Assembly (NCBI GenBank): GCA_964350645.1 | Contig: CAYGJY010000002.1 | Location: 33,538 to 97,537 of the forward strand | Reading direction: 5' to 3' | Length of the DNA stretch: 64,000 nucleotides | DNA from: an uncultured Candidatus Saccharibacteria bacterium | Lineage (GTDB): Bacteria > Patescibacteriota > Minisyncoccia > Phycocordibacterales > UBA918 | Part shown: positions 1,070 through 52,838 of the stretch, in pieces | Position numbering within the stretch: the first letter of the stretch is position 1 | Layout of the letters: every line of letters begins with the position of its first letter | Made by a program: the position numbers and the translations under genes | The notes under the pieces: model-generated | Database searches by the model: none | Told to the model about the DNA's origin: nothing | The model's input: only the letters and a program-made list of their open reading frames with translations

Positions 1070-1417
1070 TTAACGATTATCGCCGCTTCCACCAATTTTA
1101 CCACGTTCTAATCGTGAGGATAATTTTTCAATATTCATGGCAGCAACGTCTTCAAGCTGATACCCGCAGGTCTCAGCTAGCTGAGCAATATACCAGAGTA
1201 CGTCGCCCACTTCTTTCATCAAAGCTTCTTTTTGCTCAGCATTCAGTTCACTAGTCCCGGTCATTCCATCGTCACGAATAAACTTCTTTAACTTGCCCGC
1301 CACTTCTCCAGCCTCATCGGCAATCCCCAAACCTAAATAAAACATCCGCTCCATTTGATACTGAGACTTGCTAACGACGGTCGCGTTGGTTTTAAATTGG
1401 TACTCGTTGAAATCCAT
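1070..1417 (-). CDS. MazG-like nucleoside triphosphate pyrophosphohydrolase (small, all-alpha)
   Basis: 115 aa. The EAGEVAGKLKK...EALMKEVGDVLWYIAQLAE pattern is typical of the MazG/HisE NTP-PPase fold. It sits inside the nucleotide-metabolism cluster. Confidence 0.6.
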   Translation of the reverse strand: MDFNEYQFKTNATVVSKSQYQMERMFYLGLGIADEAGEVAGKLKKFIRDDGMTGTSELNAEQKEALMKEVGDVLWYIAQLAETCGYQLEDVAAMNIEKLSSRLERGKIGGSGDNR

Positions 1418-1420
1418 AAT

Positions 1421-2092
1421 CTACACGTGTTTAGAGACTAGTTGATACACTTCCTGATGAATATCATCACGCGTTCGCATCTGACCATCTTTCATACATT
1501 CAATCTGTTGCCAACAGTTGAGTTTTTCAACCACAATTCGAGCGGCTCGATCAGTTTGCTTTTGATGTTCTAGATTAGTTTCTGCTACATCAAGCACATT
1601 TTCTTTTTTATCGGCTGCGTGTTGTAGCATCTTAATTCGCTCCTCGGGATCAACGCTAAAATATAAAATAAGATCAGGGCGCGGTAACCCAAGAACTTTA
1701 TGTTCCATCTGATCGAGCCACTCTAAAAAACTCTCCATTTCTGCTGGATCAGCAATCTTTGATCCCTGGTGAAGCATATTTGAGCTTACGTAGCGATCGA
1801 GGACCACAATTCGACCTTCAGCCAACCACTCTTCAATTTGTGGTTTTGATTCAAATCGATCAGCTGCATACAGTGTTGAAGCAATCCGTGGGTCAATATG
1901 CAAAAAATCACCCCGCTTGCCATCAAGGCATTCCCGCAGTAGCCCCCCAAAGAAATTATGCTTATAACGTGGAAAATCGAGTGTTCCGGTTTGATGACCA
2001 TCTTGAATCAACTGATGCACCAACATATCAGTCTGAGTCTGCTTCCCTGCTCCATCGCCACCATCAATTACAATGAGTTTTCCTGTTGCCAT
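1421..2092 (-). CDS. tmk: thymidylate kinase
   Basis: P-loop IVIDGGDGAGKQTQ near the N-terminus, DRY-like LDRY motif, length 223 aa. Confidence 0.8.
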   Translation of the reverse strand: MATGKLIVIDGGDGAGKQTQTDMLVHQLIQDGHQTGTLDFPRYKHNFFGGLLRECLDGKRGDFLHIDPRIASTLYAADRFESKPQIEEWLAEGRIVVLDRYVSSNMLHQGSKIADPAEMESFLEWLDQMEHKVLGLPRPDLILYFSVDPEERIKMLQHAADKKENVLDVAETNLEHQKQTDRAARIVVEKLNCWQQIECMKDGQMRTRDDIHQEVYQLVSKHV

Positions 2093-2094
2093 AT

Positions 2095-2595
2095 TTATTC
2101 AAATTGTTTTCCAATAATATTACCTGGATTGTTTTTATCAAACAACACTTCACTCCCTTCAAGTAGATAGACATCTTTAATGCCAGCTGCAATCATTGCC
2201 TCCCAGCACGGCTGACAGCACCACCAATGTCCCCAGAGATAGAGATCAGCTCCGCTAGTATCTACCCCTTTTTCTCGAGCTTCATTAATGGCTGATTGTT
2301 CACCATGGTTTTTTGGGTGACAGCCTTCGCATAACTCATACCCTTGTCCCGAAGGTACGTTTTGTTTTATTCGTTCACACTCATGCGTCTTATGGTACTC
2401 ACTACCATTTGCCCCAGCCGCAACAATAGTACCTTCACTGACAATCACTGAAGCATTAGGCATGACCTGATCTAATGAATGTTCTCGAGCAAAATCTTTA
2501 GCAGCCACTATAAACTCATTAGTTGCCGAGACATACTTGATCTCTATTCCTTCAGGTAAATAGGGGTACTCAATTTTTTTACTCATATCTGACAT
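2095..2595 (-). CDS. dCMP deaminase (ComEB-like). The start is probably at the internal Met MSDMSKK
   Basis: Zinc-binding HGEQSAI (H[AG]E) and PCWEAM (PCxxC) motifs of the cytidine/deoxycytidylate deaminase family. Confidence 0.7.
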   Translation of the reverse strand: MSDMSKKIEYPYLPEGIEIKYVSATNEFIVAAKDFAREHSLDQVMPNASVIVSEGTIVAAGANGSEYHKTHECERIKQNVPSGQGYELCEGCHPKNHGEQSAINEAREKGVDTSGADLYLWGHWWCCQPCWEAMIAAGIKDVYLLEGSEVLFDKNNPGNIIGKQFE

Positions 2596-2689
2596 GGGGG
2601 GTATTCTGCTGACATAATGAACAAATTGTACCACAAGAAAAATAAGCTTAAATCTTGGCCCAAATGGGCTTGTCTAGTAGAATTGGGAC

Positions 2690-3538
2690 ATGGAAACACT
2701 CATCAATGGCTATGATATAGCGTATCAAAAAGCACTAAAAGACATCATGGAAAAAGGGATTCGCGAGGTCAACGAGCGTACCGGGCACGAAACCGCTACT
2801 TTGCCCGGCGTCAGCTTCAGCCTTGACCTTGAAACTGACGGTTTTCCGATGCTCTCACTGCGGAAAGTGCCAATCAAGATGTTTGTTGCTGAGCAAGTCT
2901 GGTTTATCGCTGGCTTACGCAAGCCGGCCGACTTCCTTCGTGAATACACCAAAATCTGGGATGATTTCACTAACCCAGGCGACACCGTGACTGTCGCTTA
3001 TGGCTACCGGTGGCGTCATCACTTCGGTCGTGATCAGCTCGGCGACTTGATCACCCTCCTCGAAAACGAACCAAGTTCTCGCCATGGCATCGTGCTGGCG
3101 TGGGACCCGGGCAGCGATGGTCTTGGCGGCACTAAACGCGCTAACGTACCTTGCCCGTTTGGTTTCTCCGTTAACATTGTGGGTGGTCGCCTTCATCTTC
3201 ATAACTTTGTACGCTCCAATGACATGATGCTTGGTAACCCCGCCGATGTCGCTGGCTTTGCGCTTCTGCAGTGTATCTTGGCTGAGCGACTTGGTGTTCG
3301 CCCTGGCATTTACACCCACTCAATCTCAAACGCGCACATCTACGATATTCACTACGAACAAGCCAAGGAGGTTATTAGTCGTACCAGCTCTCAAAAACCA
3401 ATTCATGTGAGCATTCCTGAAAGTGCGTTTGCTCGCGCTGAAGCCAAAGACGGCTCATTAGTTGAGGAAATCGCTGCCAGTATTGAAGACCAGTATGAAC
3501 CACAGGCCGCCATTAAAGGTTTAAAAATTGTTTTATAA
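2690..3538 (+). CDS. thymidylate synthase family enzyme (ThyA-like). Asp186 sits at the position of the invariant Asn177 of E. coli ThyA
   Basis: Aligns along its whole length to E. coli ThyA: ERTGHET/DRTGTGT, EQVWFIAG/ELLWFLQG, AYGYRWRHH/VYGKQWRAW, and catalytic VPC155. The motif MMLGNPADVAGFALL corresponds to VFLGLPFNIASYALL. Confidence 0.75.
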   Translation: METLINGYDIAYQKALKDIMEKGIREVNERTGHETATLPGVSFSLDLETDGFPMLSLRKVPIKMFVAEQVWFIAGLRKPADFLREYTKIWDDFTNPGDTVTVAYGYRWRHHFGRDQLGDLITLLENEPSSRHGIVLAWDPGSDGLGGTKRANVPCPFGFSVNIVGGRLHLHNFVRSNDMMLGNPADVAGFALLQCILAERLGVRPGIYTHSISNAHIYDIHYEQAKEVISRTSSQKPIHVSIPESAFARAEAKDGSLVEEIAASIEDQYEPQAAIKGLKIVL

Positions 3539-3543
3539 TTGTT

Positions 3544-4194
3544 ATGTCAGTTCTCACCAAAGACGAAATCCTTGACCGCATTGATAAAGGCGATATTGCC
3601 ATTGAACCATCTGTCGACCAGTTCCAAATCCAAGCCCACTCGGTTGATCTGCGACTCGGGTTCACCTTTATGCTCCCAAAACAATATGTGTTAACGCAAA
3701 AAGGCCGCGAAGCTCTGCAGATCGACCCTCTCTTAAACCACGGACCGGAATATTTCGATGTCATTGAACTTGAACAAGGTCAATATTTTGAACTACTTCC
3801 TGGTGAGCACGTCCTTGTCTCTAGTCTTGAAAATATTAAAGTCCCAAAAGACCTGATGGCGATTCTCTACCCTCGTTCATCGGTAAACCGTAAAGGGTTA
3901 TCAGTTGACCTAACTGGAATTATTGATTCTGGCTACGAAGGTGTCCTCACCCTCCCAGTACGCAACAATACGTCAGCGCAAATCATCCGCTTGTATCCGG
4001 GAGAACGTTTTTGCCAAGTAGTTTTTGAAGCTCTCACCCATGCAGTTGATGCTCGGCCCAGCCGTTGGCACAAGAAAGATGTCGTTGAAAAGGGTGAAAA
4101 AGAGATTGGTATTGAAATCGAATTGATTCGTGACGGAAAAATAAAAGAGCTCAAAACAGACTACAACGTAATGAAACCTACTGCCGATGTATAA
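3544..4194 (+). CDS. dcd: dCTP deaminase
   Basis: HSVDLRLG and PRSS...G motifs of the Dcd/dUTPase beta-barrel family. Confidence 0.8.
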   Translation: MSVLTKDEILDRIDKGDIAIEPSVDQFQIQAHSVDLRLGFTFMLPKQYVLTQKGREALQIDPLLNHGPEYFDVIELEQGQYFELLPGEHVLVSSLENIKVPKDLMAILYPRSSVNRKGLSVDLTGIIDSGYEGVLTLPVRNNTSAQIIRLYPGERFCQVVFEALTHAVDARPSRWHKKDVVEKGEKEIGIEIELIRDGKIKELKTDYNVMKPTADV

Positions 4195-4705
4195 AGAGAT
4201 ACCAGTTGTCATTGTGGCCGCAATGAGCCAGGAGCAACGAGTAATCGGTAAAGACAATGCCCTGCTCTGGGATTTGCCAGAAGATCGAGCACACTTTCGT
4301 GACGAAACCCGTGGCAAACCAGTTGTATTGGGGCGTAAGACCTTTGAGTCAATTCTGAGTATCTTAGGAAAGCCTTTACCCCAGCGGCCCAATATTGTCG
4401 TGACCAGAAATCGTGACTATCACACTGAGTACGATAATGTAACAATGGTTGAATCACTGGAAGCTGGACTCGAAGCGGCGGCAGCTACGCTGCCGCCTGA
4501 AATCCATATCGGTGGCGGTTCACAACTTTACGAAGTCGCCTTCCCGTACGTTGATGAGTTACGACTTACCTTAATTAATGACGAACCAAACGGTGATGCA
4601 TTTTTCCCAGACTACACTGCAGATTTTATCGAAACGGAACGCTCAGAACCTAAAACTGAAAACGGCATTTCCTACACATGGGTGACATTTACACGCGCTC
4701 ATTAA
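4187..4705 (+). CDS. folA: dihydrofolate reductase
   Basis: VVIVAAMSQEQRVIGKDNALLW, VVLGRKTFESI and GGGSQLY motifs. Overlaps the dcd stop by 8 nt. Confidence 0.85.
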   Translation: MYKEIPVVIVAAMSQEQRVIGKDNALLWDLPEDRAHFRDETRGKPVVLGRKTFESILSILGKPLPQRPNIVVTRNRDYHTEYDNVTMVESLEAGLEAAAATLPPEIHIGGGSQLYEVAFPYVDELRLTLINDEPNGDAFFPDYTADFIETERSEPKTENGISYTWVTFTRAH

Positions 4706-5504
4706 TTGCTTGATAAACGTGTATAAATTGCTTCGTAGCTGCAACATCATGGACTCGAAAAATATCGACTTGCGCTTTAAGCCCGGCTACCAGACTCGCC
4801 AACGAACCTGGTAACCGCTGGTCAGTCGGCACCTCCACACCCATAATCTTTTCAATAAACCTCTTACGCGACGTACCGAGAAGAGTTCGTGCCCCAAGAG
4901 TATTGAAACGCTCTAGATTCGTAAGCAGAGTAAGGTTATGTTCAAGCGTTTTACCGAAGCCAATTCCTACATCGACATAAATATTTTCTCTACTGAGGCC
5001 AGATGTCTCAATAGCAGCAATTCTCTCCTCCAAAAACGCATACACTTCTTCAATCACATCATCATACTGCGGGTGAGCTTGCATCGTACCAGGCTCGCCT
5101 TGCATATGCATCACACATACCGGGACCTGGGCAGCACTAGCTACTTCAAGCGCATCAGCTTCGCGAAGTGCCGCAACATCATTAATCATTGTTGCTCCAG
5201 CCTTAACTGCGTCTGTCATGACTGCAGCATGTCGACTATCGATTGAAATTGGAATGTCTGTTTCTTTACGCAATCCCTCAATCACCGGCAATACTCGACT
5301 TAATTCTTCACCAACAGCGACTTCTGCAGCTCCTGGCCGAGTGCTTTCGCCACCAATATCTACTATATCTGCTCCTTCAGCAATCAGTTGCAGTCCGTGA
5401 GCAATCGCTTTCTCGGTTTCTAGAAATTGCCCACCATCACTAAAACTGTTCGGTGTAACATTCACAATCCCCATAATCTTTGGTTGATACGCAGATTTAA
5501 TCAT
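4689..5504 (-). CDS. folP: dihydropteroate synthase
   Basis: IMGIVNVTPNSFSDGG and DIVDIGGESTRPG pterin-binding motifs. The start is taken at MIKSAYQ. Confidence 0.85.
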   Translation of the reverse strand: MIKSAYQPKIMGIVNVTPNSFSDGGQFLETEKAIAHGLQLIAEGADIVDIGGESTRPGAAEVAVGEELSRVLPVIEGLRKETDIPISIDSRHAAVMTDAVKAGATMINDVAALREADALEVASAAQVPVCVMHMQGEPGTMQAHPQYDDVIEEVYAFLEERIAAIETSGLSRENIYVDVGIGFGKTLEHNLTLLTNLERFNTLGARTLLGTSRKRFIEKIMGVEVPTDQRLPGSLASLVAGLKAQVDIFRVHDVAATKQFIHVYQAINERV

Positions 5505-6735
5505 CATTTTTTTTAATTGGTTGGTCAGCCACATTCGCCATATATTCATTGATATGTTTGCCTGTCATCGGATGACGCCACTCCGGATTAAGATCGTAGA
5601 GTGGCTGCAAGACAAAAGCTCTCTCAAACATCCGTGGATGAGGTACCGATAGAACATCACTGTGCAGAGCATATTCACCAAAGGTCAAAATATCAAGGTC
5701 TAAGACTCGTGGTGCATTTTGTACTGTGCGTACCCGACCAAATTCTTCTTCAATACTATGCAGTACTTTCAGAAGCTCATGTGCGGTCAACATGGTCGTA
5801 ACCTCAATCACTTGATTAAAATACCAAGGATCATCTGATACTGGGACTGGGGCGGTTTTGTATACTGGTGAGACAGCAATAACTTCAATCCTCTGCAAAC
5901 TAATTGCGGCAATCGCTTTTTTCAGTGTCTCTGCTGGAGTGCCAAATTTTGAATCAAGATTCGCTCCCAAACCAATATATGATCTGGTTTCTTTTTGCTC
6001 TTGGGGTGAGAGATGCCCTTCAAACAATACACGAAACATATCGTTCTGTGGTTCAATCAAAAACGAGTGCCGGCGATCAATATCTGTGAAACGAAGTCCT
6101 GGCACGTTGCGTGCAATCACCACTGGCTGACATTCAGCCACCTCACCCATAACCAGTGAAGCGCCCGCTGCAAGCGAATCAATCATATTACTTGATGACA
6201 CATGGATCTCTCTACCAAACAAATCTTTCTTACCTTTATGGAACTCAATTGGTTCTATCCCCCAAAATGCAATCGACACCCCCATACACCCAAACCGTAA
6301 TGGCGTTAAGTGACTATCAGTAATGATAACGCCAACATTTTTAAGGTTATGTTTGTCTTTAAGGTACTGCCAAATTTCTTTAGCTGCACCAAAAGCGTCT
6401 GCTGGCAGTAAAGAATAGTACCCAGCACTATTACTTTCATCAATTCCGGCTGACGCAAGGAAGGTATTGTACTTGATGGTCAGCGGGTATTTATAATATG
6501 AGCGATCAATCACGTGTTCAGCCTCTTCGGCTACCAGAGTGGCTTTATCGGTGCCTTCAATTGGTATACAGCGCCCTTGATGAATCGCGATTACCTTAGA
6601 GGATACTAAAACCACATCACCCTCTTCAACAATCGTAAGCGACTCATCAAGTACGGCAAAGAGGTCATCTTGCGGTGGCTGTAGTATACGGGTTTTGATT
6701 GGGATAAACTCCATGTTATTTACTTTTACGGACAA
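5497..6735 (-). CDS. fusion protein. The N-terminal domain is a CofE/F420-0:gamma-glutamyl ligase-like domain (FolC2-type dihydrofolate synthase candidate). The C-terminal domain is 6-hydroxymethyl-7,8-dihydropterin pyrophosphokinase (FolK)
   Basis: N-terminal motifs: DVVLVSSKVIAIHQGR, ASAGIDESNS, IITDSH...FG. C-terminal motifs: IGLGANLDS, RVLDLDILTFGE, PHPRMFERAFVLQPL. Confidence 0.7.
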   Translation of the reverse strand: MSVKVNNMEFIPIKTRILQPPQDDLFAVLDESLTIVEEGDVVLVSSKVIAIHQGRCIPIEGTDKATLVAEEAEHVIDRSYYKYPLTIKYNTFLASAGIDESNSAGYYSLLPADAFGAAKEIWQYLKDKHNLKNVGVIITDSHLTPLRFGCMGVSIAFWGIEPIEFHKGKKDLFGREIHVSSSNMIDSLAAGASLVMGEVAECQPVVIARNVPGLRFTDIDRRHSFLIEPQNDMFRVLFEGHLSPQEQKETRSYIGLGANLDSKFGTPAETLKKAIAAISLQRIEVIAVSPVYKTAPVPVSDDPWYFNQVIEVTTMLTAHELLKVLHSIEEEFGRVRTVQNAPRVLDLDILTFGEYALHSDVLSVPHPRMFERAFVLQPLYDLNPEWRHPMTGKHINEYMANVADQPIKKNDD

Positions 6736-7063
6736 CCGTAGCTACGACAGCGTTTTTCAATGCTGCAGGTTTTTGCACTTCTACTTCTACCCGTTGTACC
6801 TCACGATACTGCAAACAAAGATCTGCAATCGCATGGGCAAACGTTTCAATTAGATAGGGTTGTTTCTCTTCGGCATACTTCTCAATCATCATAGCGACTG
6901 CATCATAGTCGAAGGTAGTTTCAATGTCATCGTCGAGACTTGGCCGCGTGTGCTCAATAGTCAGATTCAACACCAGTGTCTGACGTTTGCTGCGCTCGAC
7001 ATCATAGACGCCAATCACTGGTTCAATGTTGAAGTTTGAAATGGTAATAGTGTGCAGTTCCAT
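6716..7063 (-). CDS. folB: dihydroneopterin aldolase
   Basis: IGVYDVERSKRQTLVLNLTIE pattern. Start at internal Met MELHTITI. Overlaps the folK start. Confidence 0.8.
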   Translation of the reverse strand: MELHTITISNFNIEPVIGVYDVERSKRQTLVLNLTIEHTRPSLDDDIETTFDYDAVAMMIEKYAEEKQPYLIETFAHAIADLCLQYREVQRVEVEVQKPAALKNAVVATVVRKSK

Positions 7064-7099
7064 AGTGTTATATGTATGGCCTTGAAAGTACCACACATC

Positions 7100-7130
7100 A
7101 AAAGCCGGCGCCATAGGCGCCGGCTTTTGC
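7100..7130. terminator. intrinsic terminator hairpin downstream of rplK (GCCGGCGCC-ATAG-GCGCCGGC followed by T-run). Palindromic and probably bidirectional
   Basis: Perfect 9-bp GC stem with a tetraloop and flanking A/T runs. Confidence 0.7.
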
Positions 7131-7145
7131 AAACGTGAGAAGTAA

Positions 7146-11011: not shown

Positions 11012-12019
11012 CTACCACTCAAGTGAACCAGAGTTCTGATACTCAGTCACTTTTGTTTCAAAGAAGTTCTTCTCTTTTGAAACATCCATGATCTCGCTCA
11101 TCCATGGGAATGGATTTTCTTTCATATAGAATTTTGGTAAACCAAGTCGTTCGAAACGCCGATCAGCGATAAACTCAACGTAGTCTTTCACCGCTTGCGG
11201 GTTGAGACCAAGGAAGCCGTTTGGCATTGCATCGTCAACGTAGTTTTGTTCGTGCACAACCGCTTCTTTAATCTTCTCGATAATGTCAGCCTGGAAGCTC
11301 TCAGTCCATGCGTCTGGGTTCTCAGACTTGATTGTGTTAATCAAATCAATTCCGAAAGCCAAGTGCACTGACTCATCACGCAAAATGTACTGGAACTGGT
11401 CACCAATTCCAACCATCTTGTTTTGACGTTTCATTGAGAGAATCATCGCAAAACCAGCATAGAAGAAGATTCCTTCCATGATCACATAGAAACCAATCAG
11501 ATCATGCATAAACTTCTGGATCCCCTCAGTTGAATCAGTCTTGAAGTTAGGGTCAAGCACTGACTGGGTGAAGTTAATTACAAAGTCATCTTTCGCCTTA
11601 ATCGACGGGATTGTCTCATACATGTTGTAAATCTCATCCGGATCAAGACCGAGTGAATCACAGCAGTAAATAAAGGTGTCAGTATGAATCGCTTCTTCAT
11701 ACGCCTGACGCAACATGTACTGGCGGCACTCAGGGTTGGTCACGTGGTTGTAGGCAGCCAAAACGATATTGTTGGCGGTCAGTGACTCAGCGGTAGAAAA
11801 GAAGCCAAGGTTCCACAAGATCATCCGGCGCTCGTCATCAGACAATGCCCCTGGTCCCTGCTTTTTCCACAGCTCGATGTCAAGCTGCATCGACACCTCT
11901 TCTGGTGTCCAGTTATTGTTGACTCCAGCTTTATAATGCTCACGCGCCCACTTATACCGCATCGGTAAAATTTTGTTTGGATCGGTCGTGCTGTTGTTGA
12001 TAATTCCTGATTTATTCAT
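11012..12019 (-). CDS. nrdB: ribonucleotide reductase class Ia small subunit
   Basis: Di-iron ligand motifs (EAIHTDTF, ESVHLAF) and the tyrosyl-radical region (FFYAGFAMI). Confidence 0.9.
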   Translation of the reverse strand: MNKSGIINNSTTDPNKILPMRYKWAREHYKAGVNNNWTPEEVSMQLDIELWKKQGPGALSDDERRMILWNLGFFSTAESLTANNIVLAAYNHVTNPECRQYMLRQAYEEAIHTDTFIYCCDSLGLDPDEIYNMYETIPSIKAKDDFVINFTQSVLDPNFKTDSTEGIQKFMHDLIGFYVIMEGIFFYAGFAMILSMKRQNKMVGIGDQFQYILRDESVHLAFGIDLINTIKSENPDAWTESFQADIIEKIKEAVVHEQNYVDDAMPNGFLGLNPQAVKDYVEFIADRRFERLGLPKFYMKENPFPWMSEIMDVSKEKNFFETKVTEYQNSGSLEW

Positions 12020-12227
12020 AGTAGTTATGTGTTGTACACCATTACCTCAATAATAAAATTATGTGGTTTTTAGTGGCGCGTTTCTCGCGCATTAAGGGGC
12101 TAGTAAAGGCGACCGTCTGAGCAGCGTCTCGTGTGTTACAAATTGGGCGAGAAGCGGCGCTCGGCGGGGACTGCGTGTCGCGTCACGTAGTCCCAGCCGA
12201 GCGCCGCTTGAGTCCCTCTATTGTACA

Positions 12228-15095
12228 CTACTGACAAGCATCGCAAACCGCTTCTTCCGCAATGTGTAGTTTAATCTGCGGTTGTGCTGGGACTTTGGCA
12301 ACTTCAACAACTTTAGCAGCGTCGATTTGTTCTTTTTGGATTGGTGACGGAGTTGGCATCGGTGACGGAGTAGCAACTGTGCCAACAACGTCGTTACCGG
12401 TTGTCTGTTTCGTCTCATTCTTCTGACGCATCTGGGTACCAGCTGCATCAATGGTTGATTTCTCTACTTGAGAAGCTCCTAGTGACCGCAAATAGTATGT
12501 AGTCTTCACTCCTGCCTCCCACGCATACATATAGAGATCTGAAATTTCTTTACCTGACGTACCAGCGTAGAAGATATTAAGTGACTGTGACTGATCGATC
12601 CACTTTCCACGAGCGGCGGCGGCTTTCACCAACCAACGCATATCAATTTCAAAGGTTTCCTTAAAACGATCTTTTAATTCTTGTGGCACCCGATCAATCT
12701 TTCGCAGCGATCCATCATTAAACTTAATCTCATTAAGCATTTCTTTATCCCAGAGGTTGAGCTTCTTAAGTTCTCGTACCAAGGCATTGTTCACAATAAT
12801 GAAGTCTCCTGAAATATTAGCCTTCACGTAAATGTTCTTATAGATTGGTTCAATTCCAGGGATTGATCCAGCAATATTTGAGATAGTTGCAGTTGGTGCA
12901 ATCGCCATACAATTGCTGTTACGCATACCGTACTGCTTAATTGCTGCCCGCACTGGCGCCCAATCAAGTGACTCAGTCTTATCGGTACCAGTCGGCATAC
13001 CACGGTTTTCTTCGAGAAGAGCGATCGTATCAACCGGAAGAATTCCTCGATCCCACTTAGAGCCGGTGAAACTTTCATATGAACCACGCTCTTTTGCTAA
13101 GTCTGCTGAAGCCATAATCGCTGAATGTGACACAAGCTCCATTGAAGTGTCAGCAAATTGTACACACTCATCTGAATCAAAATTGATACCGAGTTCGTAC
13201 AGTGCATCTTGGAAGCCCATAACACCAAGACCGACTGGGCGGTGCTTCATGTTTGAGTTACGTGCTTCTTTGGTTGGGTAGAAGTTAAGATCGATGACGT
13301 TATCGAGCATACGCATTGCAACAGCAACAGTTGCTTTCACTTTATCAGTGTCGAGTTCCCCTCCCTTGGTGTGGCGCGCTAAGTTAACTGAACCAAGATT
13401 ACACACCGCTGTCTCAGTCTCTGACGTATTGAGCGTAATCTCAGTACAGAGGTTTGAGTTATGTACCACACCGGCATGATCTTGTGGTGAACGAATGTTT
13501 GATGGATCCTTGAAAGTGACCCATGGGTGACCAGTTTCGAAGAGCATACCAATGTGTCGCTTCCAGAGATCACGAGCCTTCATCTTCTTGAAGAGATTAA
13601 TTTCACCTCGTTCTGCCATCGCTTCATATTTTTCGTATAGAGTTTCAAACTCCTTACCGTACGTCTCAGTCAAATCAACCGCTTCGTCTGGTGAAAATAA
13701 CGTCCAATCACCATCTTCTTTCACTCGCTTCATAAAGAGATCAGAGATCCATGAAGCAGTGTTCATATCATGAGCCCGTCGACGTTCATCACCAGTGTTC
13801 TTACGCAGTTCCAAGAAATCAAGAAAATCGTAGTGCCAGTTTTCCATGTATACACAGGTAGCACCGCGACGTCGTCCAGAACGGTTAATCGCAACAGTAA
13901 CGTCGTTAGCAATCTTCAAAAACGGGATAGTTCCTTGTGAAGTGATTCCAGCAGTCTTGATCAAGGCGCCAGTTGCTCGAAGCTTACTCCAAGCAGTCCC
14001 AATGCCTCCCGCCCATTTCGAAAGCTGCGCGTTATCACCAAATACTTTAAAGATGTGATTGAGATCATCTTCCACAACGTTGAGATAACAACTTGAAAGT
14101 TGTGGGTGTGGTGTACCAGCATGAAACAACGTTGGGGTACTTGGTACAAAACTCAAGGTCGACATCACTTCATAAAATTCAATCGCTCGAGCCTCTTTTT
14201 CGGCTTCATTGAGTGCCAATCCCATGGCAATACGCATCCACATATATTGTGGCGTCTCAAGGATTTTGCCAGCTGATGTACGGATGAAATACCGATCATT
14301 GAGTGTCTCGACACCTAGGTACTTAAACAGATCATCTCGCTCTGGCTTGATCGCAGCCGTAATTTTGTCCATGTCAAAATCAAGCATGCTCTCTGCCAGC
14401 TTTTTGTCAGCGACTCCTTCCTTAATATTGCGGGCAAAGGCTGTTTTATATTTGTCTGCAAAATCCTTGTCAGCCACGTCCAAGTTTTCACTGATCGCTT
14501 CATTATAAAGACGCGCACACAACTGACGCGCTGCAGCAGTTGAGTACGCTGGATCGTTTTCAATCCGTGCCCGCAAAACGAGTGTAACAAGCTTAGCAAG
14601 CTCCTTAGTAGAAATACCATCGTATACTTCGCGCTCTACCTGATTCACCACACTCTCCAAATTGACTTCTACTTCAATGCCAGTCAAAAACTTACCAACA
14701 TACTTCATCATCTCTTCTCGAGAAAATTGTTCTTCGCCATCGGCTGTCTTAATCATCAACCGATTCTCCTCAATCTCCTTAACAATCTCATCTTTTCTCT
14801 CTTCAGTCTGGCGAAAGCGGTACAAAATGTATGCTTTAGCAACGTTGAAATAACCACGCTCCATGAGTGTCTCTTCAACTAAATCTTGAACAAACTCAAC
14901 AGTTGGGCATGGCCCTTCGGTAGCGGCTTCGCACTTAGTGACCAGTTTGGCCAGCACACGGTCAACCATTTGCTCAAGTACACGCTCATCAACAGCAACA
15001 GCTTCGGCTGCGAAGGCTTTTTTGATCGCAACTTGCATTTTACCTTGATCAAACGGTACTACCTGACCATTTCTTTTTGTAATCTCTGTAAACAT
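12228..15095 (-). CDS. nrdA: ribonucleotide reductase class Ia large subunit with an N-terminal ATP-cone
   Basis: ATP-cone KRNGQVVPFDQGKMQVAIKKA; active-site NLCTEI, SNLCTE and C-terminal CDAC redox pair. The track start at 15116 is GTG; the ATG start is at 15095. Confidence 0.9.
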   Translation of the reverse strand: MFTEITKRNGQVVPFDQGKMQVAIKKAFAAEAVAVDERVLEQMVDRVLAKLVTKCEAATEGPCPTVEFVQDLVEETLMERGYFNVAKAYILYRFRQTEERKDEIVKEIEENRLMIKTADGEEQFSREEMMKYVGKFLTGIEVEVNLESVVNQVEREVYDGISTKELAKLVTLVLRARIENDPAYSTAAARQLCARLYNEAISENLDVADKDFADKYKTAFARNIKEGVADKKLAESMLDFDMDKITAAIKPERDDLFKYLGVETLNDRYFIRTSAGKILETPQYMWMRIAMGLALNEAEKEARAIEFYEVMSTLSFVPSTPTLFHAGTPHPQLSSCYLNVVEDDLNHIFKVFGDNAQLSKWAGGIGTAWSKLRATGALIKTAGITSQGTIPFLKIANDVTVAINRSGRRRGATCVYMENWHYDFLDFLELRKNTGDERRRAHDMNTASWISDLFMKRVKEDGDWTLFSPDEAVDLTETYGKEFETLYEKYEAMAERGEINLFKKMKARDLWKRHIGMLFETGHPWVTFKDPSNIRSPQDHAGVVHNSNLCTEITLNTSETETAVCNLGSVNLARHTKGGELDTDKVKATVAVAMRMLDNVIDLNFYPTKEARNSNMKHRPVGLGVMGFQDALYELGINFDSDECVQFADTSMELVSHSAIMASADLAKERGSYESFTGSKWDRGILPVDTIALLEENRGMPTGTDKTESLDWAPVRAAIKQYGMRNSNCMAIAPTATISNIAGSIPGIEPIYKNIYVKANISGDFIIVNNALVRELKKLNLWDKEMLNEIKFNDGSLRKIDRVPQELKDRFKETFEIDMRWLVKAAAARGKWIDQSQSLNIFYAGTSGKEISDLYMYAWEAGVKTTYYLRSLGASQVEKSTIDAAGTQMRQKNETKQTTGNDVVGTVATPSPMPTPSPIQKEQIDAAKVVEVAKVPAQPQIKLHIAEEAVCDACQ

Positions 15096-15491
15096 AACGG
15101 GGTGATTAAGAGCCACTTATATCCATAAGTGGAGTATGGGGTTAATAAACCGCCTCTGAAAAGCTTCAGGGTCGGAAGAGATAATCTCTCGCAGAAATTA
15201 TTGGTGGTGATGTATCTCTGTCAGCGTATTTTTCAATACCGCTAACAAATCATGCGACTGCTACTACGCTGCCGCAGACAATCATTTCTAAGAAAGATTA
15301 CTGCGTCTTTCGGGGTCTTGAACACACTACTCTGCGGCTAACAGAGCACAAATGCGTGCCGTACCTCCGACACACAAAGTTGGAGAGCCTCGTGTGTTAC
15401 CTAGATAGTAGCGCTGCCCTTTTGATTTGTAAAATAGGCCTAATATACTCTGATTTGTGGATATTCTTTTGCGGCGCTTTGAAAATAGATT

Positions 15492-24161: not shown

Positions 24162-26110
24162 TTGCGAAAATCGCCCAGATTGTCTCCCCCTACCGAGACG
24201 TTTGGACTGTTATACTTGATAGATGAAGCCGTGGCAGACGATAACGAAAAAAACCTCTCTATCAGTGGTGTGTTGCTGATAACTTTAATTGGCGGCGGCT
24301 GGTTTTTCTTGCCCCAACCAACTCCGCCGCTTCCCTTGCCTGATAACCCTGATTACTTAAACGCTACCCTACCGACCGAGACGCGCGTAGCCAGTCTTTT
24401 TTCATACATGACCCTTGAGGAGAAAATTGGGCAAATGGCGTTGGTTGAAAAAAATAGTCTCAAAGAATTAGGTGACATCAGTGGCTACCGGCTAGGCGCC
24501 CTCTTAAGCGGCTCGGGAGCTAAACCAGAAGAAAATACCCCAGCAGGCTGGAAGAAAATGACCGACGCATTCCAAGCTGAGGCAACACAATCTCGGCTAG
24601 GTATTCCTCTGCTCTATGGTTCAGACGCAATTCATGGACACGCCCACGTTCCGGGAGCAACTATTTTCCCGCATATGATCGGGCTTGGTGCCACTGGTGA
24701 TCCAGAATTGGTACGGAAAATTGCAGCCGCCACTGCTGAAGACATGTTGGCCACCGGAGTGAATTGGAACTTTGCTCCCAACCTAGACACGCCGCAAGAT
24801 ATTCGCTGGGGTCGCGTATATGAAACATTCTCTGATGACCCAGCCTTGGTGGCAAAACTAGGCGTAGCCTATATAGAAGGATTACAATCGTATGCTGACT
24901 CTCAAATACTAGCCACCCCAAAGCATTTTATCGGGCTTGGCGGCATGCGTTGGGACACATCCCTAAATGAAAACTTTACAATCGACCAAGGCGTCACCCC
25001 AGCTGACGAAAAGATACTAGAAGAGGTATACTTGCCCCCATTTGCCGCTGCCGTCGATGCTGGGGCTTTAAGCATTATGGTTGGACTCAACACCTGGGGT
25101 AATACGAAAACAGTTCGACAAAAGTATCTCCTAACCGACGTACTCAAAAACCAACTTGAATTCCAAGGGTTGTAGTTTCTGACTGGTACGGGGTTCACGA
25201 AGGAGCCCGAAGCAATTTTTGGGCTACGATATCAGCGATTAATGCAGGCGTAGATATGGTCATGCTGCCGTTTGATTATGAGAAGTTCACTCGCCATATG
25301 TTGTGGGCCAATCGACTTGGCTTGATATCTGATGAACGCATCGATGATGCGGTGCGTAGAATTTTATACGCGAAGTTTTCACGTGGTTTATTTGATACTG
25401 ACGATAACAACCAGCAAATCTCTGAGACCTCAAATCAAACACACCAAAAATTAGCCCGTGATGCCGTAGCAGCATCTCTCGTTCTTATAAAAAATGAAGC
25501 TGCCCTACTACCAAGAAAAGGTACCGCCAAGAAAATTCGAGTAGCTGGAAGTGCCGCTGATAATGTCGGTAAACAGCTTGGGGCGTGGAGCATCGAGTGG
25601 CAAGGGGTTGACGGCAACTGGCCCCCAAACTCAACCTCGATTCTCGCTGGTATCAAAGAAGTAGCCGGGAAAAATACCCTCATTGAATTTGACGCTGCTG
25701 GGAAATTTTTAGGAAATACAACAAAAGCAGATGTCGGCATTGCTGTGGTCGGTGAATCCCCCTATGCCGAAGGTTGGGGGGACAACCCAAACCCTACCCT
25801 CAGTGAAGAGGATATAACCGCGATAAAAAATCTCCGGGACACCAGCCGCACTGTTATAGTCATTTTAGTGACGGGACGACCCCTCATCATTACTGATGAG
25901 ATTAGCGACTGGGACGCCCTTGTGGTTGCTTGGTTACCCGGCAGTGAGGGGGCTGGTGTGGCTGATGTCCTGTTTGGTAAAAAAGCATTTTCAGGAACCC
26001 TGCCTTTACCGTGGCCAGCAAACATAAAACAATTATCAATTTCTACAACTGGGAAAACCAATGATGGTAGCGACGTGCTTTTCCCTCGATATTTTGGCCT
26101 CAAATACTAA
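24162..26110 (+). pseudogene. glycoside hydrolase family 3 (BglX/NagZ-like) split by a single-base frameshift near 25160-25175 into ORFs 24162-25175 and 25256-26110
   Basis: ORF1 carries the GH3 N-domain (KHFIGLGG, GIPLLYGSDAIHG). ORF1 ends LKNQLEFQGL*. The +2 frame continues as VVSDWYGVHEGARSNFWATISAINAGVDMVMLP, which is the conserved GH3 continuation. ORF2 carries the GH3 C-domain. One missing base restores ...GLVVSDW. Confidence 0.7.
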
Positions 26111-34505: not shown

Positions 34506-35957
34506 ATGACTGAAGCGACCGTTGTCTATCCGCATCAATTATTTAAAGACTCGCCGGCCATCAAAGATGGCCGGCTTGTGTATCTTGTGGAAGAATCTCT
34601 TCTCCTTACCTATAATCCGATCCATCGGCAAAAGCTCATGCTACATAAGCTTTCAATGGATGCGTATCAAGCGGAGCTTGAAGCGGCGGGTCACTGCGTG
34701 ACCCGCCTCACCATCCAGGACCATCCGGACACTACTACTGTGTTTGAGCGTCTTCAGTCTGACGGTATTACATCCATTCATGTAGTCGACACCACTGACA
34801 CCTACCTTGAAGCTGCAATTACTGAATCAGGCCTCGAACGTGTGTGGTACGAATCCCCACTGTTTATACTTGAAAAAAATGACGCGATCGGCCGCTACCA
34901 GAAAAGTACTAAGCACCTAGCAAGGTTTTACAAACAGCTTCGTCTCGACAAAAAAATCTTGCTGGAAAAAGATGGATCACCAACTGGCGGTGCCTGGAAC
35001 TTTGACACAGAAAATCGTAAAAAGATTCCCAAAAATATTGAACTACCCGAGGACATCGAATGGCTCGAGAGTTCTGCAATCACAGCTGCAGTCGATTGGA
35101 TTAGAAGTGTCCCGGCTGAACAATACGGGGAAACTAATTATTGGATTCCGTACACCAGACATGATGCTGAAGCGTATTTAAAACAATTTTTCGCTGATCG
35201 TTTTCACGACTTCGGCCCATATGAAGACGCTTTCAATACAACCCACACCCGCCTCTGGCACTCAACCCTATCTCCTCTTCTCAACATTGGTCTACTGACC
35301 CCAGCAGAAGTACTTAAAGCGGCCCTCACTCACGGTAAGAAAAAGCAGGTGCCTATTAATTCCCTCGAAGGGTTTGTACGGCAAATCCTGGGCTGGCGCG
35401 AATTTATTCGCGCCAGCTACGAGTGCGACGGCAGTGTTATGCGATCACAAAACTTCTGGCAGCACACTCGTTCGCTGCCAGAAGCTTTTTGGAAAGGAAC
35501 CACCTATCTCACACCCGTCGATCATGCGATTCACACTGCACTCCACTACGGCTACAACCATCATATTGAACGACTGATGGTACTCGGTAATATAATGCTT
35601 CTCTCAGGTATCCATCCGACCGAAGTGTATCGCTGGTTTATGGGTATGTACGTTGACGCTTATGACTGGGTCATGGTGCCCAATGTCTACGGCATGAGTC
35701 AATTCTCTGATGGTGGTAGCTTTGCAACTAAACCATACATCAGCGGCGCTAACTACATTAAAAAAATGTCCAACTTCAAAACCGGTGACTGGGAAGAAAC
35801 ATGGACTGCCCTCTACTGGAACTTCATCGCTACTCACCTCGACTATTTCAAATCCAACCATCGCTTATCGATGATGCCCCGGATGCTGGAGAAGATGGAT
35901 GAAACAAAGCAGACTGCTGTACAGCAGCTTGCCAATGACTACCTCACCAAACTCTAA
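34506..35957 (+). CDS. cryptochrome/photolyase-family protein (photolyase-related, COG3046-like)
   Basis: GWREFIRASYE and the C-terminal FAD-binding region typical of photolyase-related proteins. Confidence 0.65.
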   Translation: MTEATVVYPHQLFKDSPAIKDGRLVYLVEESLLLTYNPIHRQKLMLHKLSMDAYQAELEAAGHCVTRLTIQDHPDTTTVFERLQSDGITSIHVVDTTDTYLEAAITESGLERVWYESPLFILEKNDAIGRYQKSTKHLARFYKQLRLDKKILLEKDGSPTGGAWNFDTENRKKIPKNIELPEDIEWLESSAITAAVDWIRSVPAEQYGETNYWIPYTRHDAEAYLKQFFADRFHDFGPYEDAFNTTHTRLWHSTLSPLLNIGLLTPAEVLKAALTHGKKKQVPINSLEGFVRQILGWREFIRASYECDGSVMRSQNFWQHTRSLPEAFWKGTTYLTPVDHAIHTALHYGYNHHIERLMVLGNIMLLSGIHPTEVYRWFMGMYVDAYDWVMVPNVYGMSQFSDGGSFATKPYISGANYIKKMSNFKTGDWEETWTALYWNFIATHLDYFKSNHRLSMMPRMLEKMDETKQTAVQQLANDYLTKL

Positions 35958-51482: not shown

Positions 51483-52838
51483 TTGATTATGTGGTCTGCC
51501 CGAACTCTCCTCTGGCCAAGACCACCTCCGAAGCCGTATACTAAAACCATTATGGGAACGATTTTATATTGGATCAAACGCTGTATTCCGGGACCTGTCT
51601 TGGATGTTGTTCGTCCACCATATCATTTGGCGCTCGCCTACATTGGAGCAGCCTGGTACCGTCACCCCTCTAAAGAACTCACGGTGATTGCAGTCACTGG
51701 TACTAAAGGCAAATCAACGGTTACTGAGTTGATCCGTACAATTCTTGAAGCTGACGGTAAAAATGTTGCTTCGCTCTCAACTATTCAATTCAAAACTGGC
51801 GATACAACTGAACGAAATTTGTACAAAATGACTCTCCCTGGTCGTTTCTTTCTGCAGCGATTTTTGCGCGACGCAGTCACTGCTGGCTGCACTTATGCCG
51901 TAGTTGAAATGACCTCAGAAGGGGCTAAACAGTATCGCCACAAATTTGTACACCTGGATGCGCTGGTCTTTACTAATCTTACTCCTGAACACATCGAATC
52001 CCACGGCTCGTTTGAAAATTACAAAAATGCTAAGTTGGCGATTGCAAAACAGTTAAAAGCTTCTGGCAAACAACCTCGCTATATCGTCGCTAATACCGAC
52101 AACGAACACGGCGTTGATTTTCTCAATATCGAGGTTGAGGAGAAGCTACCGTACGGTTTAAAGTCACTCAAGTTACATACATTGCACAAAGACGGCATTA
52201 GTCTAATTTTTACTGCTAACCAAGAAGAAGTGACTATCCGGGTACCTTTGGTCGGTCTCTTCAATGTCTACAACACCCTCGCAGCAATCACCCTCACACA
52301 AGCAATGGGGGTCTCACTCAAAACAATCGAAACTGCCCTACGAGCACTGTCTCCGATCAAGGGTCGCGTGGAACACTTTTATTCACCAAGCAGTGCCACC
52401 AAACAAGTTACAGCTATCGTTGATTACGCTCATACCCCTGATTCACTCGAACAACTTTACAAAGCTTTTAAAGACGTTCCGAAGGTTGGTATCCTTGGAA
52501 ACACCGGCGGCGGACGCGATACGTGGAAGCGGCCAGAAATGGCGGCGATTGCGGAACGCTATTGTGACTTTATTATTCTTACCAATGAAGACCCCTATGA
52601 TGAGAACCCCCATAAAATTGTCGAGGACATGGCTAAGGGCATCGAGGATAAAAGTAAGTTAGAAATTATTATGGATCGCCGCGCAGCTATCGCAGCTGCC
52701 CTCCAGAAATGTCCAAGTGGTGGCTACGTACTCATCTCCGGCAAAGGGACTGACCCCTATATCATGGGGCCCCATAATTCACGGCAACCGTGGAGTGACG
52801 CTGAGGTAGTGCAAGAGGAATTAGCGAAACTTTCATAA
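51483..52838 (+). CDS. Mur ligase family protein (MurE-like)
   Basis: VIAVTGTKGKSTVTELI P-loop, TNLTPEHIESHGSFENY, and a C-terminal Mur ligase domain. Confidence 0.7.
   Translation: MIMWSARTLLWPRPPPKPYTKTIMGTILYWIKRCIPGPVLDVVRPPYHLALAYIGAAWYRHPSKELTVIAVTGTKGKSTVTELIRTILEADGKNVASLSTIQFKTGDTTERNLYKMTLPGRFFLQRFLRDAVTAGCTYAVVEMTSEGAKQYRHKFVHLDALVFTNLTPEHIESHGSFENYKNAKLAIAKQLKASGKQPRYIVANTDNEHGVDFLNIEVEEKLPYGLKSLKLHTLHKDGISLIFTANQEEVTIRVPLVGLFNVYNTLAAITLTQAMGVSLKTIETALRALSPIKGRVEHFYSPSSATKQVTAIVDYAHTPDSLEQLYKAFKDVPKVGILGNTGGGRDTWKRPEMAAIAERYCDFIILTNEDPYDENPHKIVEDMAKGIEDKSKLEIIMDRRAAIAAALQKCPSGGYVLISGKGTDPYIMGPHNSRQPWSDAEVVQEELAKLS

Follow-up and report, generated by a model that had tools for sequence, protein, structure and literature searches.

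The 64,000-nucleotide stretch of DNA analyzed here (the window), from an uncultured Candidatus Saccharibacteria bacterium, encodes near its start a member of the thymidylate synthase (TS) family, herein termed ThyA-D, which has aspartate at the position of the base-specificity residue Asn177 of E. coli ThyA. The aspartate is invariant across a large group of Patescibacteria and is accompanied by other active-site residues that are shared with phage enzymes known to methylate deoxycytidine monophosphate (dCMP). Because of the invariant Asp, the matching second-shell residues and the kinship to these validated enzymes, we propose that ThyA-D probably prefers dCMP over deoxyuridine monophosphate (dUMP) as its substrate. 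We further put forward, more tentatively, a hypothetical route in which ThyA-D is a methylenetetrahydrofolate-dependent dCMP C5-methyltransferase of the type found in phage Xp12, the product of which would be deaminated to deoxythymidine monophosphate (dTMP), rather than a TS that methylates dUMP.

Aspartate at the base-specificity position of a full-length ThyA homologue

The open reading frame (ORF) of ThyA-D begins with ATG, ends with a stop codon and encodes 282 residues, and its place in the PF00303 superfamily is evident from the profile, the fold, the Cys of the Pro-Cys motif and the conserved residues. The Pfam profile (PF00303, Thymidylat_synt) covers residues 11 to 253 (E 1.7e-50; 172.1 bits, cut-off 24.3), the AlphaFold2 model has a predicted template modeling score (pTM) of 0.86 and matches many solved TS structures with a TM score of about 0.8 (Foldseek), and direct translation gives TGC at 3152-3154 for the catalytic Cys155 and CCG at 3155-3157 for Pro156. 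The general catalytic residues of the superfamily are all kept in the alignment (R21, E58, Y94, C146, R166, S167, D169, H207, and Y209, in the numbering of E. coli ThyA, which is used herein for all alignment positions) and the C-terminal tail (IKGLKIVL) is canonical-like and of the TS type. Among the seven TS equivalog models of NCBIfam, ThyA-D scores above the cut-off of TIGR03284 (118 versus 108.35) and far under the cut-offs of NF002497, NF002496, NF002495, NF002499, NF010393, and NF002498. The window itself is cellular and not viral, as it contains rplK, nusG, seven tRNAs, nrdAB, and polA.

Pairwise HMMER alignments against the TS structures 3ix6, 6auj, and 4h0r place the segment RSNDMMLGNPADVAGF of ThyA-D onto RSADIFLGVPFNIASY, ungapped across the motif, with Asp186 on Asn177 of the E. 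coli enzyme, and the same register is given by MAFFT alignments with E. coli ThyA, the T4-type td enzyme, T4 dCMP hydroxymethylase and the Xp12 enzyme (the references used here and below were E. coli ThyA, Dcd, and Dut, B. subtilis ComEB, T4 cd, and T4 gp42, the last of which was checked against the PDB). The sole nearby asparagine in ThyA-D, Asn183, lies on Leu174 of E. coli ThyA, where members of the family have F, C, L, N, M, G, A, H, or T. Since this position is so variable, Asn183 is not a displaced specificity residue and a misalignment does not explain Asp186. An earlier note on this DNA, made from the sequence alone, had described a full-length ThyA homologue that retains the catalytic Cys155 and has Asp186 in place of Asn177, and had asked for a structure-aware alignment in case an Asn had been misplaced; that description of the ORF is correct.

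The residue is not peculiar to one genome. Asp is found at position 177 in all of the 120 best homologues (66-100% identity), which come without exception from metagenome-assembled genomes of Patescibacteria, or candidate phyla radiation (CPR) bacteria, and for which every named source gives "thymidylate synthase". When a single genome was scanned for each GTDB species, 207 relatives were found, and 80 loci were kept as the base for the locus counts given below; they represent Kaiser-, Pace-, Nomura-, Adler-, Doudna-, Taylor-, Vogel-, Colwell- and Moraniibacteria and Saccharimonadales. Together with the window, these make 81 species-level loci and all 81 have Asp, encoded by GAT in at least 44 and by GAC in 34, with Asn only one transition away. 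Judged from these alignments, the trait belongs to a whole clade of Patescibacteria, with at least 80 related species, and because the residue is invariant while both of its codons are used and Asn is so close by mutation, its retention is far beyond chance and points to long-term purifying selection for Asp.

Active-site residues and phylogeny shared with phage dCMP methyltransferases

From 150 representatives of 50%-identity clusters, the 123 of at least 245 residues were aligned to E. coli ThyA together with reference, phage and CPR-family sequences, and the alignment sorts into 133 sequences with Asp177 (D-type) and 22 with Asn177 (N-type). The two types also differ at a series of other positions. 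Position 83 is Phe in 127 of the 133 D-type sequences and Trp in 19 of the 22 N-type sequences, position 143 is Asn in 118 of the former and Leu in all of the latter, and position 147 is Pro in 108 and His in 21, respectively. At position 165 the D-type residue is mostly hydrophobic while 17 N-type sequences have Gln, and D-type sequences have an insertion of about four additional residues ahead of the catalytic Cys. ThyA-D has W83F, L143N, H147P, and Q165V (Phe93, Asn152, Pro156, and Val174) together with the insertion of about four residues. It thus lacks the His147, Gln165, Leu143, and Trp83 of canonical ThyA, in addition to the Asn177 of dUMP-methylating enzymes (EC 2.1.1.45), and it has the combination of Asp177, Pro147, Phe83, Asn143, and insertion that is common to the Xp12-type dCMP C5-methyltransferases of Xp12, PaMx74, Mallos, and others. 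In published metagenomic work, phage contigs with modified cytosine were best told apart from those with unmodified cytosine by positions 147 and 177 (PMC8670742).

The BLASTP scores of ThyA-D follow the same division, with 172 bits to the enzyme of Mallos, 160 to that of PaMx74, and 159 to that of Xp12 (37% identity), compared to 121 for T4-type td, 107 for E. coli ThyA, and 30 for T4 gp42, and the closest CHARACTERISED enzyme is the ThyA of Xp12. The best phage matches are from Bradleyvirinae siphoviruses and Rhodobacter phages, whose ThyA homologues carry RSSDVFVGLPYDV and NVPCP and are encoded in modules of the order pyrophosphohydrolase, ThyA, dCMP deaminase, and dihydrofolate reductase (DHFR). 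This group includes Xp12 and PaMx74, the DNA of which contains 5-methylcytosine (5mC) in place of cytosine. The Xp12 enzyme and five of seven metagenomic D-type homologues were shown by liquid chromatography-mass spectrometry to produce 5-methyldeoxycytidine (5mdC), and the deaminases encoded beside such enzymes were proposed to convert 5mdC nucleotides to deoxythymidine nucleotides, thereby bypassing a dUMP-dependent synthase (bioRxiv 10.1101/2024.12.05.627091).

A neighbor-joining tree (the earlier note had also called for a phylogeny) places ThyA-D in a D-type clade that is split from canonical TS and T4 dCMP hydroxymethylase with moderate support (71% bootstrap), and within it the CPR core clade has 100% bootstrap. 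The best 85 or so of the cluster representatives are all D-type, the first N-type sequence appearing at 144 bits. The nearest D-type representatives from outside the CPR are on phage-like contigs, and two of the three have a deaminase gene directly downstream. Some D-type enzymes are naturally fused to proteins of the kinds encoded around ThyA-D. One representative (P0148, at L091:6001-7302) is a deaminase-ThyA-D fusion, in a locus that also encodes a ribonucleotide reductase (RNR), a dCTP deaminase (DCD)-family protein without its catalytic Glu and many genes without a Pfam match, and another (P0186) is a fusion with a PRA-PH/MazG-like pyrophosphohydrolase. The N-terminal 190 residues of P0122 were considered as a further fusion partner and rejected, as they are Ala/Arg-rich, resemble no protein of the module and are probably due to a mis-called start. 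As separate observations, P0158 is a D-type ThyA fused to an HNH endonuclease domain, and P0267 has Asp177 in an otherwise canonical active site (W83, I143, H147, R127, and F176), groups with the N-type sequences and may represent a natural single-site N177D variant.

The ThyA-D module and its neighbors

The features of the module are listed in Table 1. Across the 80 loci the conserved order is a deaminase gene on the minus strand followed by ThyA-D and a DCD-like gene on the plus strand, and the module is usually located near rplK-nusG. The deaminase is present in 77 loci, the DCD-like gene in 76, Tmk in 47, a MazG-like gene in 22, and a true Dut in 16, and several of the loci without a deaminase or DCD-like gene end at a contig edge. 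The neighbors that the earlier note had listed, a MazG-type pyrophosphohydrolase, a nucleotide kinase, a deaminase of the dCMP family, and DHFR, are all present, while what it had called a dCTP deaminase lacks the catalytic residue (see below). The deaminase contains the H-x-E and C-x-x-C motifs (zinc and Glu), its true start is likely Met14 at 2595, and its best solved relative is the dCMP deaminase of S. mutans, a weak match (E 9e-4).

Table 1. Positions in the window of ThyA-D, its key residues and the neighboring genes.
Feature	Position	Strand	Basis and remarks
ThyA-D, ThyA-family protein with dCMP-type active site, predicted folate-dependent dCMP C5-methyltransferase	2690..3538	+	ORF, PF00303, residue pattern
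N152-V-P-C155-P156, catalytic Cys, with Asn at E. coli L143 and Pro at E. coli H147	3143..3157	+	Alignment to E. coli ThyA
Codon GAT, Asp186, at the E. coli Asn177 base-specificity position	3245..3247	+	Translation and alignments; Asp in 81/81 loci
DCD-family protein, co-transcribed, 5 nt past ThyA-D	3544..4194	+	PF22769 and TIGR02274 matches; Pro138 codon CCA at 3955-3957
Dihydrofolate reductase, overlaps the end of the DCD-family gene	4187..4705	+	PF00186, E 1.7e-44
Divergent PF00383 protein (dCMP/cytidine deaminase family), divergently transcribed; proposed 5-methyl-dCMP and/or dCMP deaminase	2095..2634	-	Pfam, E 5.4e-11
Tmk-like deoxynucleoside monophosphate (dNMP) kinase (dTMP kinase family)	1421..2092	-	PF02223, E 4.5e-21; TIGR00041 77.9 versus cut-off 83.25, under the NCBIfam equivalog cut-offs
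Small all-alpha MazG-like nucleoside triphosphate (NTP) pyrophosphohydrolase	1070..1417	-	PF03819, E 1.5e-9; weak match to dCTP pyrophosphatase 1 (7mu5, E 0.008)
Class I ribonucleotide reductase, nrdB 11012-12019 and nrdA 12228-15116; nearby deoxynucleotide source, context	11012..15116	-	PF00268, PF02867, PF00317, ATP-cone

A DHFR gene follows ThyA-D in 54 of the 80 loci. At least 14 more have instead a divergent ORF of about 160 residues, between ThyA-D and the DCD-like gene, that matches both DHFR_1 and RibD_C and has starts and stops that overlap or abut those of its neighbors (L014:10535-11035, L031:10825-11316, L038, L042, and others). This protein appears to be a second type of DHFR that replaces the canonical-like one, which gives a DHFR-type gene in at least 68 of the 80 loci. 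Together with the PF00383 deaminase in 77 loci, this is the gene setting of the Xp12-type enzymes. The tight coupling implies that dihydrofolate is made and so points to a reductive methylation, in line with the suggestion of the earlier note that the linked folA fits a dihydrofolate-producing reaction. In the window, a folate-biosynthesis cluster is also present, with folP at 4689-5549 and folB at 6716-7132, while a gene of the Mur-ligase/FolC-like kind lies at 51483-52838. Within the cluster, the ORF at 5497-6735 (-) fuses a CofE-like F420-0:gamma-glutamyl ligase domain to HPPK (folK), an arrangement that recalls the CofE-family protein FolC2, which substitutes in Chlamydia.

The DCD-like protein is a conspicuous member of the module. 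It exceeds the curated dCTP deaminase threshold of TIGR02274 (114.9 versus 92.8), and annotation pipelines will therefore call it a dCTP deaminase. However, where 4xjc and 2qlp have TLEL, the protein of the window has TLPV in HMMER alignments, so that the Glu, reportedly the catalytic residue of Dcd (E138 in E. coli; Johansson et al., 2005), is replaced by Pro. Since the replacement is seen against these two entries, it does not depend on the Dcd reference sequence. Pro is found at the E138 position in all 75 of the CPR orthologues compared (L004-L083), which sets them apart from dCTP deaminases, and it also occurs in the DCD neighbor of the unrelated deaminase-ThyA-D fusion described above (L091:7335-7973(-)). 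Given the loss of the catalytic Glu, the DCD-like protein is probably not a dCTP deaminase and the module is probably not running the conversion of dCTP to dUTP. Instead, it may act as a dCTP/dUTP pyrophosphatase and so release dCMP, or it may serve as a nucleotide-binding partner. Loss of the Glu in 75 of 75 orthologues and at an independent D-type locus is what would be expected if the module no longer feeds dUTP and dUMP to the synthase.

The window contains neither ThyX nor a second ThyA, and 71 of the 80 loci, as far as the locus itself extends, have no other thymidylate synthase. In the other nine, however, a Tmk-ThyX fusion lies directly beside the deaminase of the deaminase/ThyA-D pair (L028, L031:7043-9436(-), L035:7100-9403(-), L037, L038, L042, L056, L063, and L064; mostly titled Saccharimonadales). 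The fusion protein is about 770-800 residues in length, combines PF02223 with a tandem PF02511 and looks intact, and the architecture has at least 8000 candidates in the database, the named ones of which are from Saccharibacteria/Saccharimonadales. In its RHR...RY motif, three residues are inserted and the classical position is not occupied by Ser. Judged from these loci, ThyA-D is not simply the sole thymidylate synthase of its clade. ThyA and ThyX are known to coexist in other bacteria, such as Mycobacterium.

Three further observations concern the rest of the window. Glycoside hydrolase family 3 is represented by two consecutive ORFs about 80 nt apart, the first with its N-terminal and the second with its C-terminal domain (24162-25175 (+) and 25256-26110 (+)), which may represent a split gene or a frameshift. 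A protein related to deoxyribodipyrimidine photolyases (PF04244, DPRP) is encoded at 34506-35957 (+), in a lineage that is usually described as minimal. Finally, GC skew is negative in all 4-kb bins from 1 to 64000 (-0.07 to -0.17) and the long ORFs are mostly on the minus strand, which fits a location of the entire window on a single replichore.

Proposed reaction of ThyA-D and its alternatives

Based on the residues, the phylogeny and the gene neighborhood, we put forward the following hypothetical route. Cys155 of ThyA-D would attack C6 of the pyrimidine while Asp186 would read the 4-amino/N3 face of cytosine. A hydride from the folate would then complete the methyl group and yield dihydrofolate, from which the co-transcribed DHFR would regenerate the folate cofactor. 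The PF00383 deaminase would convert 5-methyl-dCMP to dTMP and the adjacent Tmk would phosphorylate it. The DCD-family protein, its deaminase Glu gone, would no longer make dUTP but may supply dCMP from dCTP. If so, thymidylate synthesis in which methylation comes first and deamination second would be a housekeeping route in a large clade of Patescibacteria. The coupling to DHFR, the Asn143 shared with Xp12, the intact D169, and the TS-like tail argue for transfer of a methyl rather than a hydroxymethyl or hydroxyl group. The central idea of the earlier note, that a cellular genome encodes a substrate-switched ThyA homologue, is thereby strengthened, by the invariant Asp177 with Pro147, Phe83, Asn143, and a residue other than Gln at 165, and by the cellular genes of the window, although the Asp-tolerant TS that it had offered as the alternative retains some weight, as described below.

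Several points weigh against the proposed route. The canonical order, in which dCMP is deaminated to dUMP and then methylated, needs the same two protein families, and synteny therefore cannot separate the two orders. The 16 loci with a true Dut indicate that dUMP is being made there, and where ThyX is present the conversion of 5-methyl-dCMP to dTMP would be redundant, which makes a pure bypass role less compelling in those genomes. The deaminase has no relative in phages by tblastn, and the 5mC deaminases of phages are not its orthologues; inheritance of the whole phage module together is for this reason rejected as far as the deaminase is concerned. The ThyA-D family shares no more than about 37% identity with the validated phage enzymes, has His at position 127 and Ala, His, Ser, or Thr at position 176 where the phage enzymes have Arg or Gln and Tyr, respectively, and has the canonical-like C-terminus that phage D-type enzymes lack. 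The deeper groupings of the neighbor-joining tree, which would place the family within the D-type clade, have less than 15% bootstrap, and two of the seven D-type homologues in the published assay did not give 5mdC (bioRxiv 10.1101/2024.12.05.627091).

The alternative that survives best, although we consider it unlikely, is that ThyA-D is an ordinary TS that tolerates Asp, descended from a D-type ancestor and re-adapted to dUMP through other changes, with the deaminase supplying dUMP from dCMP. Such an enzyme would fit the names given by all sources and the TIGR03284 score, the retained catalytic residues and tail, a module that resembles a dTTP-synthesis operon with Tmk, DHFR, a nearby RNR, and sometimes Dut, the lack of another thymidylate synthase in the window and in 71 loci, and the known coexistence of ThyA with ThyX elsewhere. 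It is harder to reconcile with the effect of the corresponding change in E. coli and L. casei TS (N177D/N229D), where, as related in PMC8670742, dUMP is strongly disfavored and dCMP methylase activity is gained (Liu & Santi, 1992; Hardy & Nalivaika, 1992). Among the 81 lineages, in which both Asp codons are in use, the single transition needed for reversion is not seen once, four more active-site positions are as in validated dCMP methylases and not as in any N-type sequence, and the scores far under six of the seven equivalog cut-offs also speak against it. Moreover, streamlined genomes that already have Tmk-ThyX retain ThyA-D with its DHFR and DCD-like partners in nine loci, which argues against a redundant ordinary TS.

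A second alternative, which we regard as doubtful, is that 5-methyl-dCMP is phosphorylated and polymerized so that 5mC replaces some or all of the cytosine in the DNA, as in Xp12, with the deaminase diverting part of it to thymidine and the DCD-like and MazG-like proteins depleting dCTP. In its broadest form, which is less probable still, a class-level group comprising Paceibacteria and related Patescibacteria would have chromosomal 5mC for much or all of its cytosine, made at the nucleotide level, with the DCD-like protein as the depleter of dCTP. To our knowledge, DNA with 5mC for much or all of its cytosine has so far been found only in a few phages. In its favor, the module corresponds gene for gene to that of the fully 5mC-substituted phages (pyrophosphohydrolase, ThyA-D, deaminase, and DHFR), its dNMP kinase scores as slightly atypical, and a DCD scaffold without the deaminase residue could serve as a dCTPase. 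In addition, where ThyX-Tmk covers dTMP synthesis, ThyA-D, DHFR, and the DCD-like protein form a separate operon without an obvious thymidylate role. On the other hand, a cell is not a lytic phage and would need to adjust every one of its DNA transactions to such a base, no 5-methyl-dCMP-specific kinase was identified, and modified DNA in Patescibacteria is not reported in the literature searched. A scan of the viral contigs of IMG/VR, where a CPR-type ThyA-D might have suggested a function against restriction, found none. We also know of no reported anomalies in the many long-read assemblies of Patescibacteria, which weighs weakly against 5mC in their DNA. A motif scan for C5-DNA-methyltransferases over about 1.3 Mb of loci gave no match, a result that is uninformative with respect to 5mC.

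That ThyA-D is a dCMP hydroxymethylase like T4 gp42 or another C5 synthase, producing 5-hydroxy-dCMP or acting as a CMP hydroxymethylase like MilA, is very improbable and was rejected: Asp177 and the RSND motif are as in gp42, but position 143 is Asn and not Asp or Glu, D169 is kept, the coupled DHFR implies dihydrofolate, which hydroxymethylases do not produce, and the deoxyribose-binding H207 and Y209 are retained.

Significance

Both dCMP methylases and the deamination of 5mC to T are already known in phages, while the D-type pattern, a DCD partner without Glu and a methylate-then-deaminate route were not reported for any cellular genome in the literature searched. CPR papers handle the gene as an ordinary thyA, and metabolic reconstructions of these organisms count it as a thymidylate synthase. 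If dCMP is indeed what is methylated, a large branch of the bacteria would make thymidylate in an order so far put forward for no more than a few phages and would avoid dUMP as a committed intermediate or, alternatively, would place a non-canonical base in cellular DNA. In either case, models of nucleotide metabolism, folate dependence, sensitivity to antifolates and 5-fluorouracil, and uracil avoidance in Patescibacteria would change, and methylation-aware sequencing of environmental samples would be affected. The residues D177, P147, F83, and N143 in ThyA together with E138P in its DCD partner provide a simple rule for re-annotation of thousands of database entries.

Comparison with known systems

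Compared to canonical ThyA of E. coli and L. casei, ThyA-D has the same fold, the dimer-type phosphate-binding Arg, the catalytic Cys, E58, Y94, D169, H207, Y209, the C-terminal tail, and the linkage to DHFR. However, it is only 29% identical to the E. coli enzyme and five of the twelve residues within 6 Å of C5 are different (143, 147, 165, 168, and 177); in addition, W83 is replaced by Phe and R127 by His. The earlier note had likened the module to the T4 toolkit for hydroxymethylcytosine (gp42, cd, gp56, gp1, and frd), but the 5mC module of Xp12 and the pamexviruses fits better. With T4 gp42 (EC 2.1.2.8), ThyA-D shares the specificity Asp, the RSND motif, and the catalytic Cys, at 21% identity; the phage protein has Asp143, no TS-type tail, and no dihydrofolate product, while ThyA-D has Asn152 at position 143, the tail, and a coupled DHFR. 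In a 2026 study, a bulky hydrophobic residue at position 143 was associated with a methyl product and an acidic one with a hydroxymethyl product, while D169N gave 5-hydroxy-dCMP (PMC13326640). ThyA-D keeps Asp178 at position 169 and in this respect also differs from the 5-hydroxy-dCMP synthases RB69 gp48 and DLP3 gp80.

The DCD-like protein has the DCD fold signature and the Ser111, Ser112, Arg115, and Asp128 of E. coli Dcd and of the bifunctional DCD-DUT enzymes of M. tuberculosis and B. halodurans, and like the latter it is without Arg126/His125. In addition to the change of E138 to Pro, it differs from Dcd, as do the CPR orthologues, in the absence of the C-terminal KYxxQxG lid motif and in the presence of an invariant Y-E-G, whereas the Dcd proteins of archaeal viruses keep both the Glu and KYxxQxG. 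The deaminase of the window can be compared to mSCD-B5, one of the phage-side deaminases found beside a D-type ThyA, as both are PF00383 proteins proposed to yield thymidine nucleotides from 5-methyldeoxycytidine nucleotides. However, mSCD-B5 works on triphosphates and the protein of the window is closest, if weakly, to cellular dCMP deaminases.

The BLASTP ranking, with Xp12, the closest characterized relative, far above T4 gp42, makes the Xp12 dCMP C5-methyltransferase the proper analogue of ThyA-D. Both are PF00303 proteins with Asp177, Pro147, Phe83, Asn143, a hydrophobic residue at position 165, and the insertion ahead of the Cys, and they have the motifs AYGYRWR.HFGRDQ and WDP..DGLG...NVPCP in common. 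The modules are likewise comparable, as a PF00383 deaminase, DHFR, and an NTP pyrophosphohydrolase are linked to the enzyme in the window as they are in phages of the Pamexvirus/Bosavirus group (PaMx74, AXL1, Mallos, and others), while the module of the window has in addition the DCD-family gene without Glu and Tmk, and its deaminase is divergently transcribed and non-orthologous. The two systems also differ in the host, since the Xp12 enzyme is encoded by a virus with 5mC DNA and ThyA-D by a cell, where it is kept near rplK/nusG in at least 80 species.

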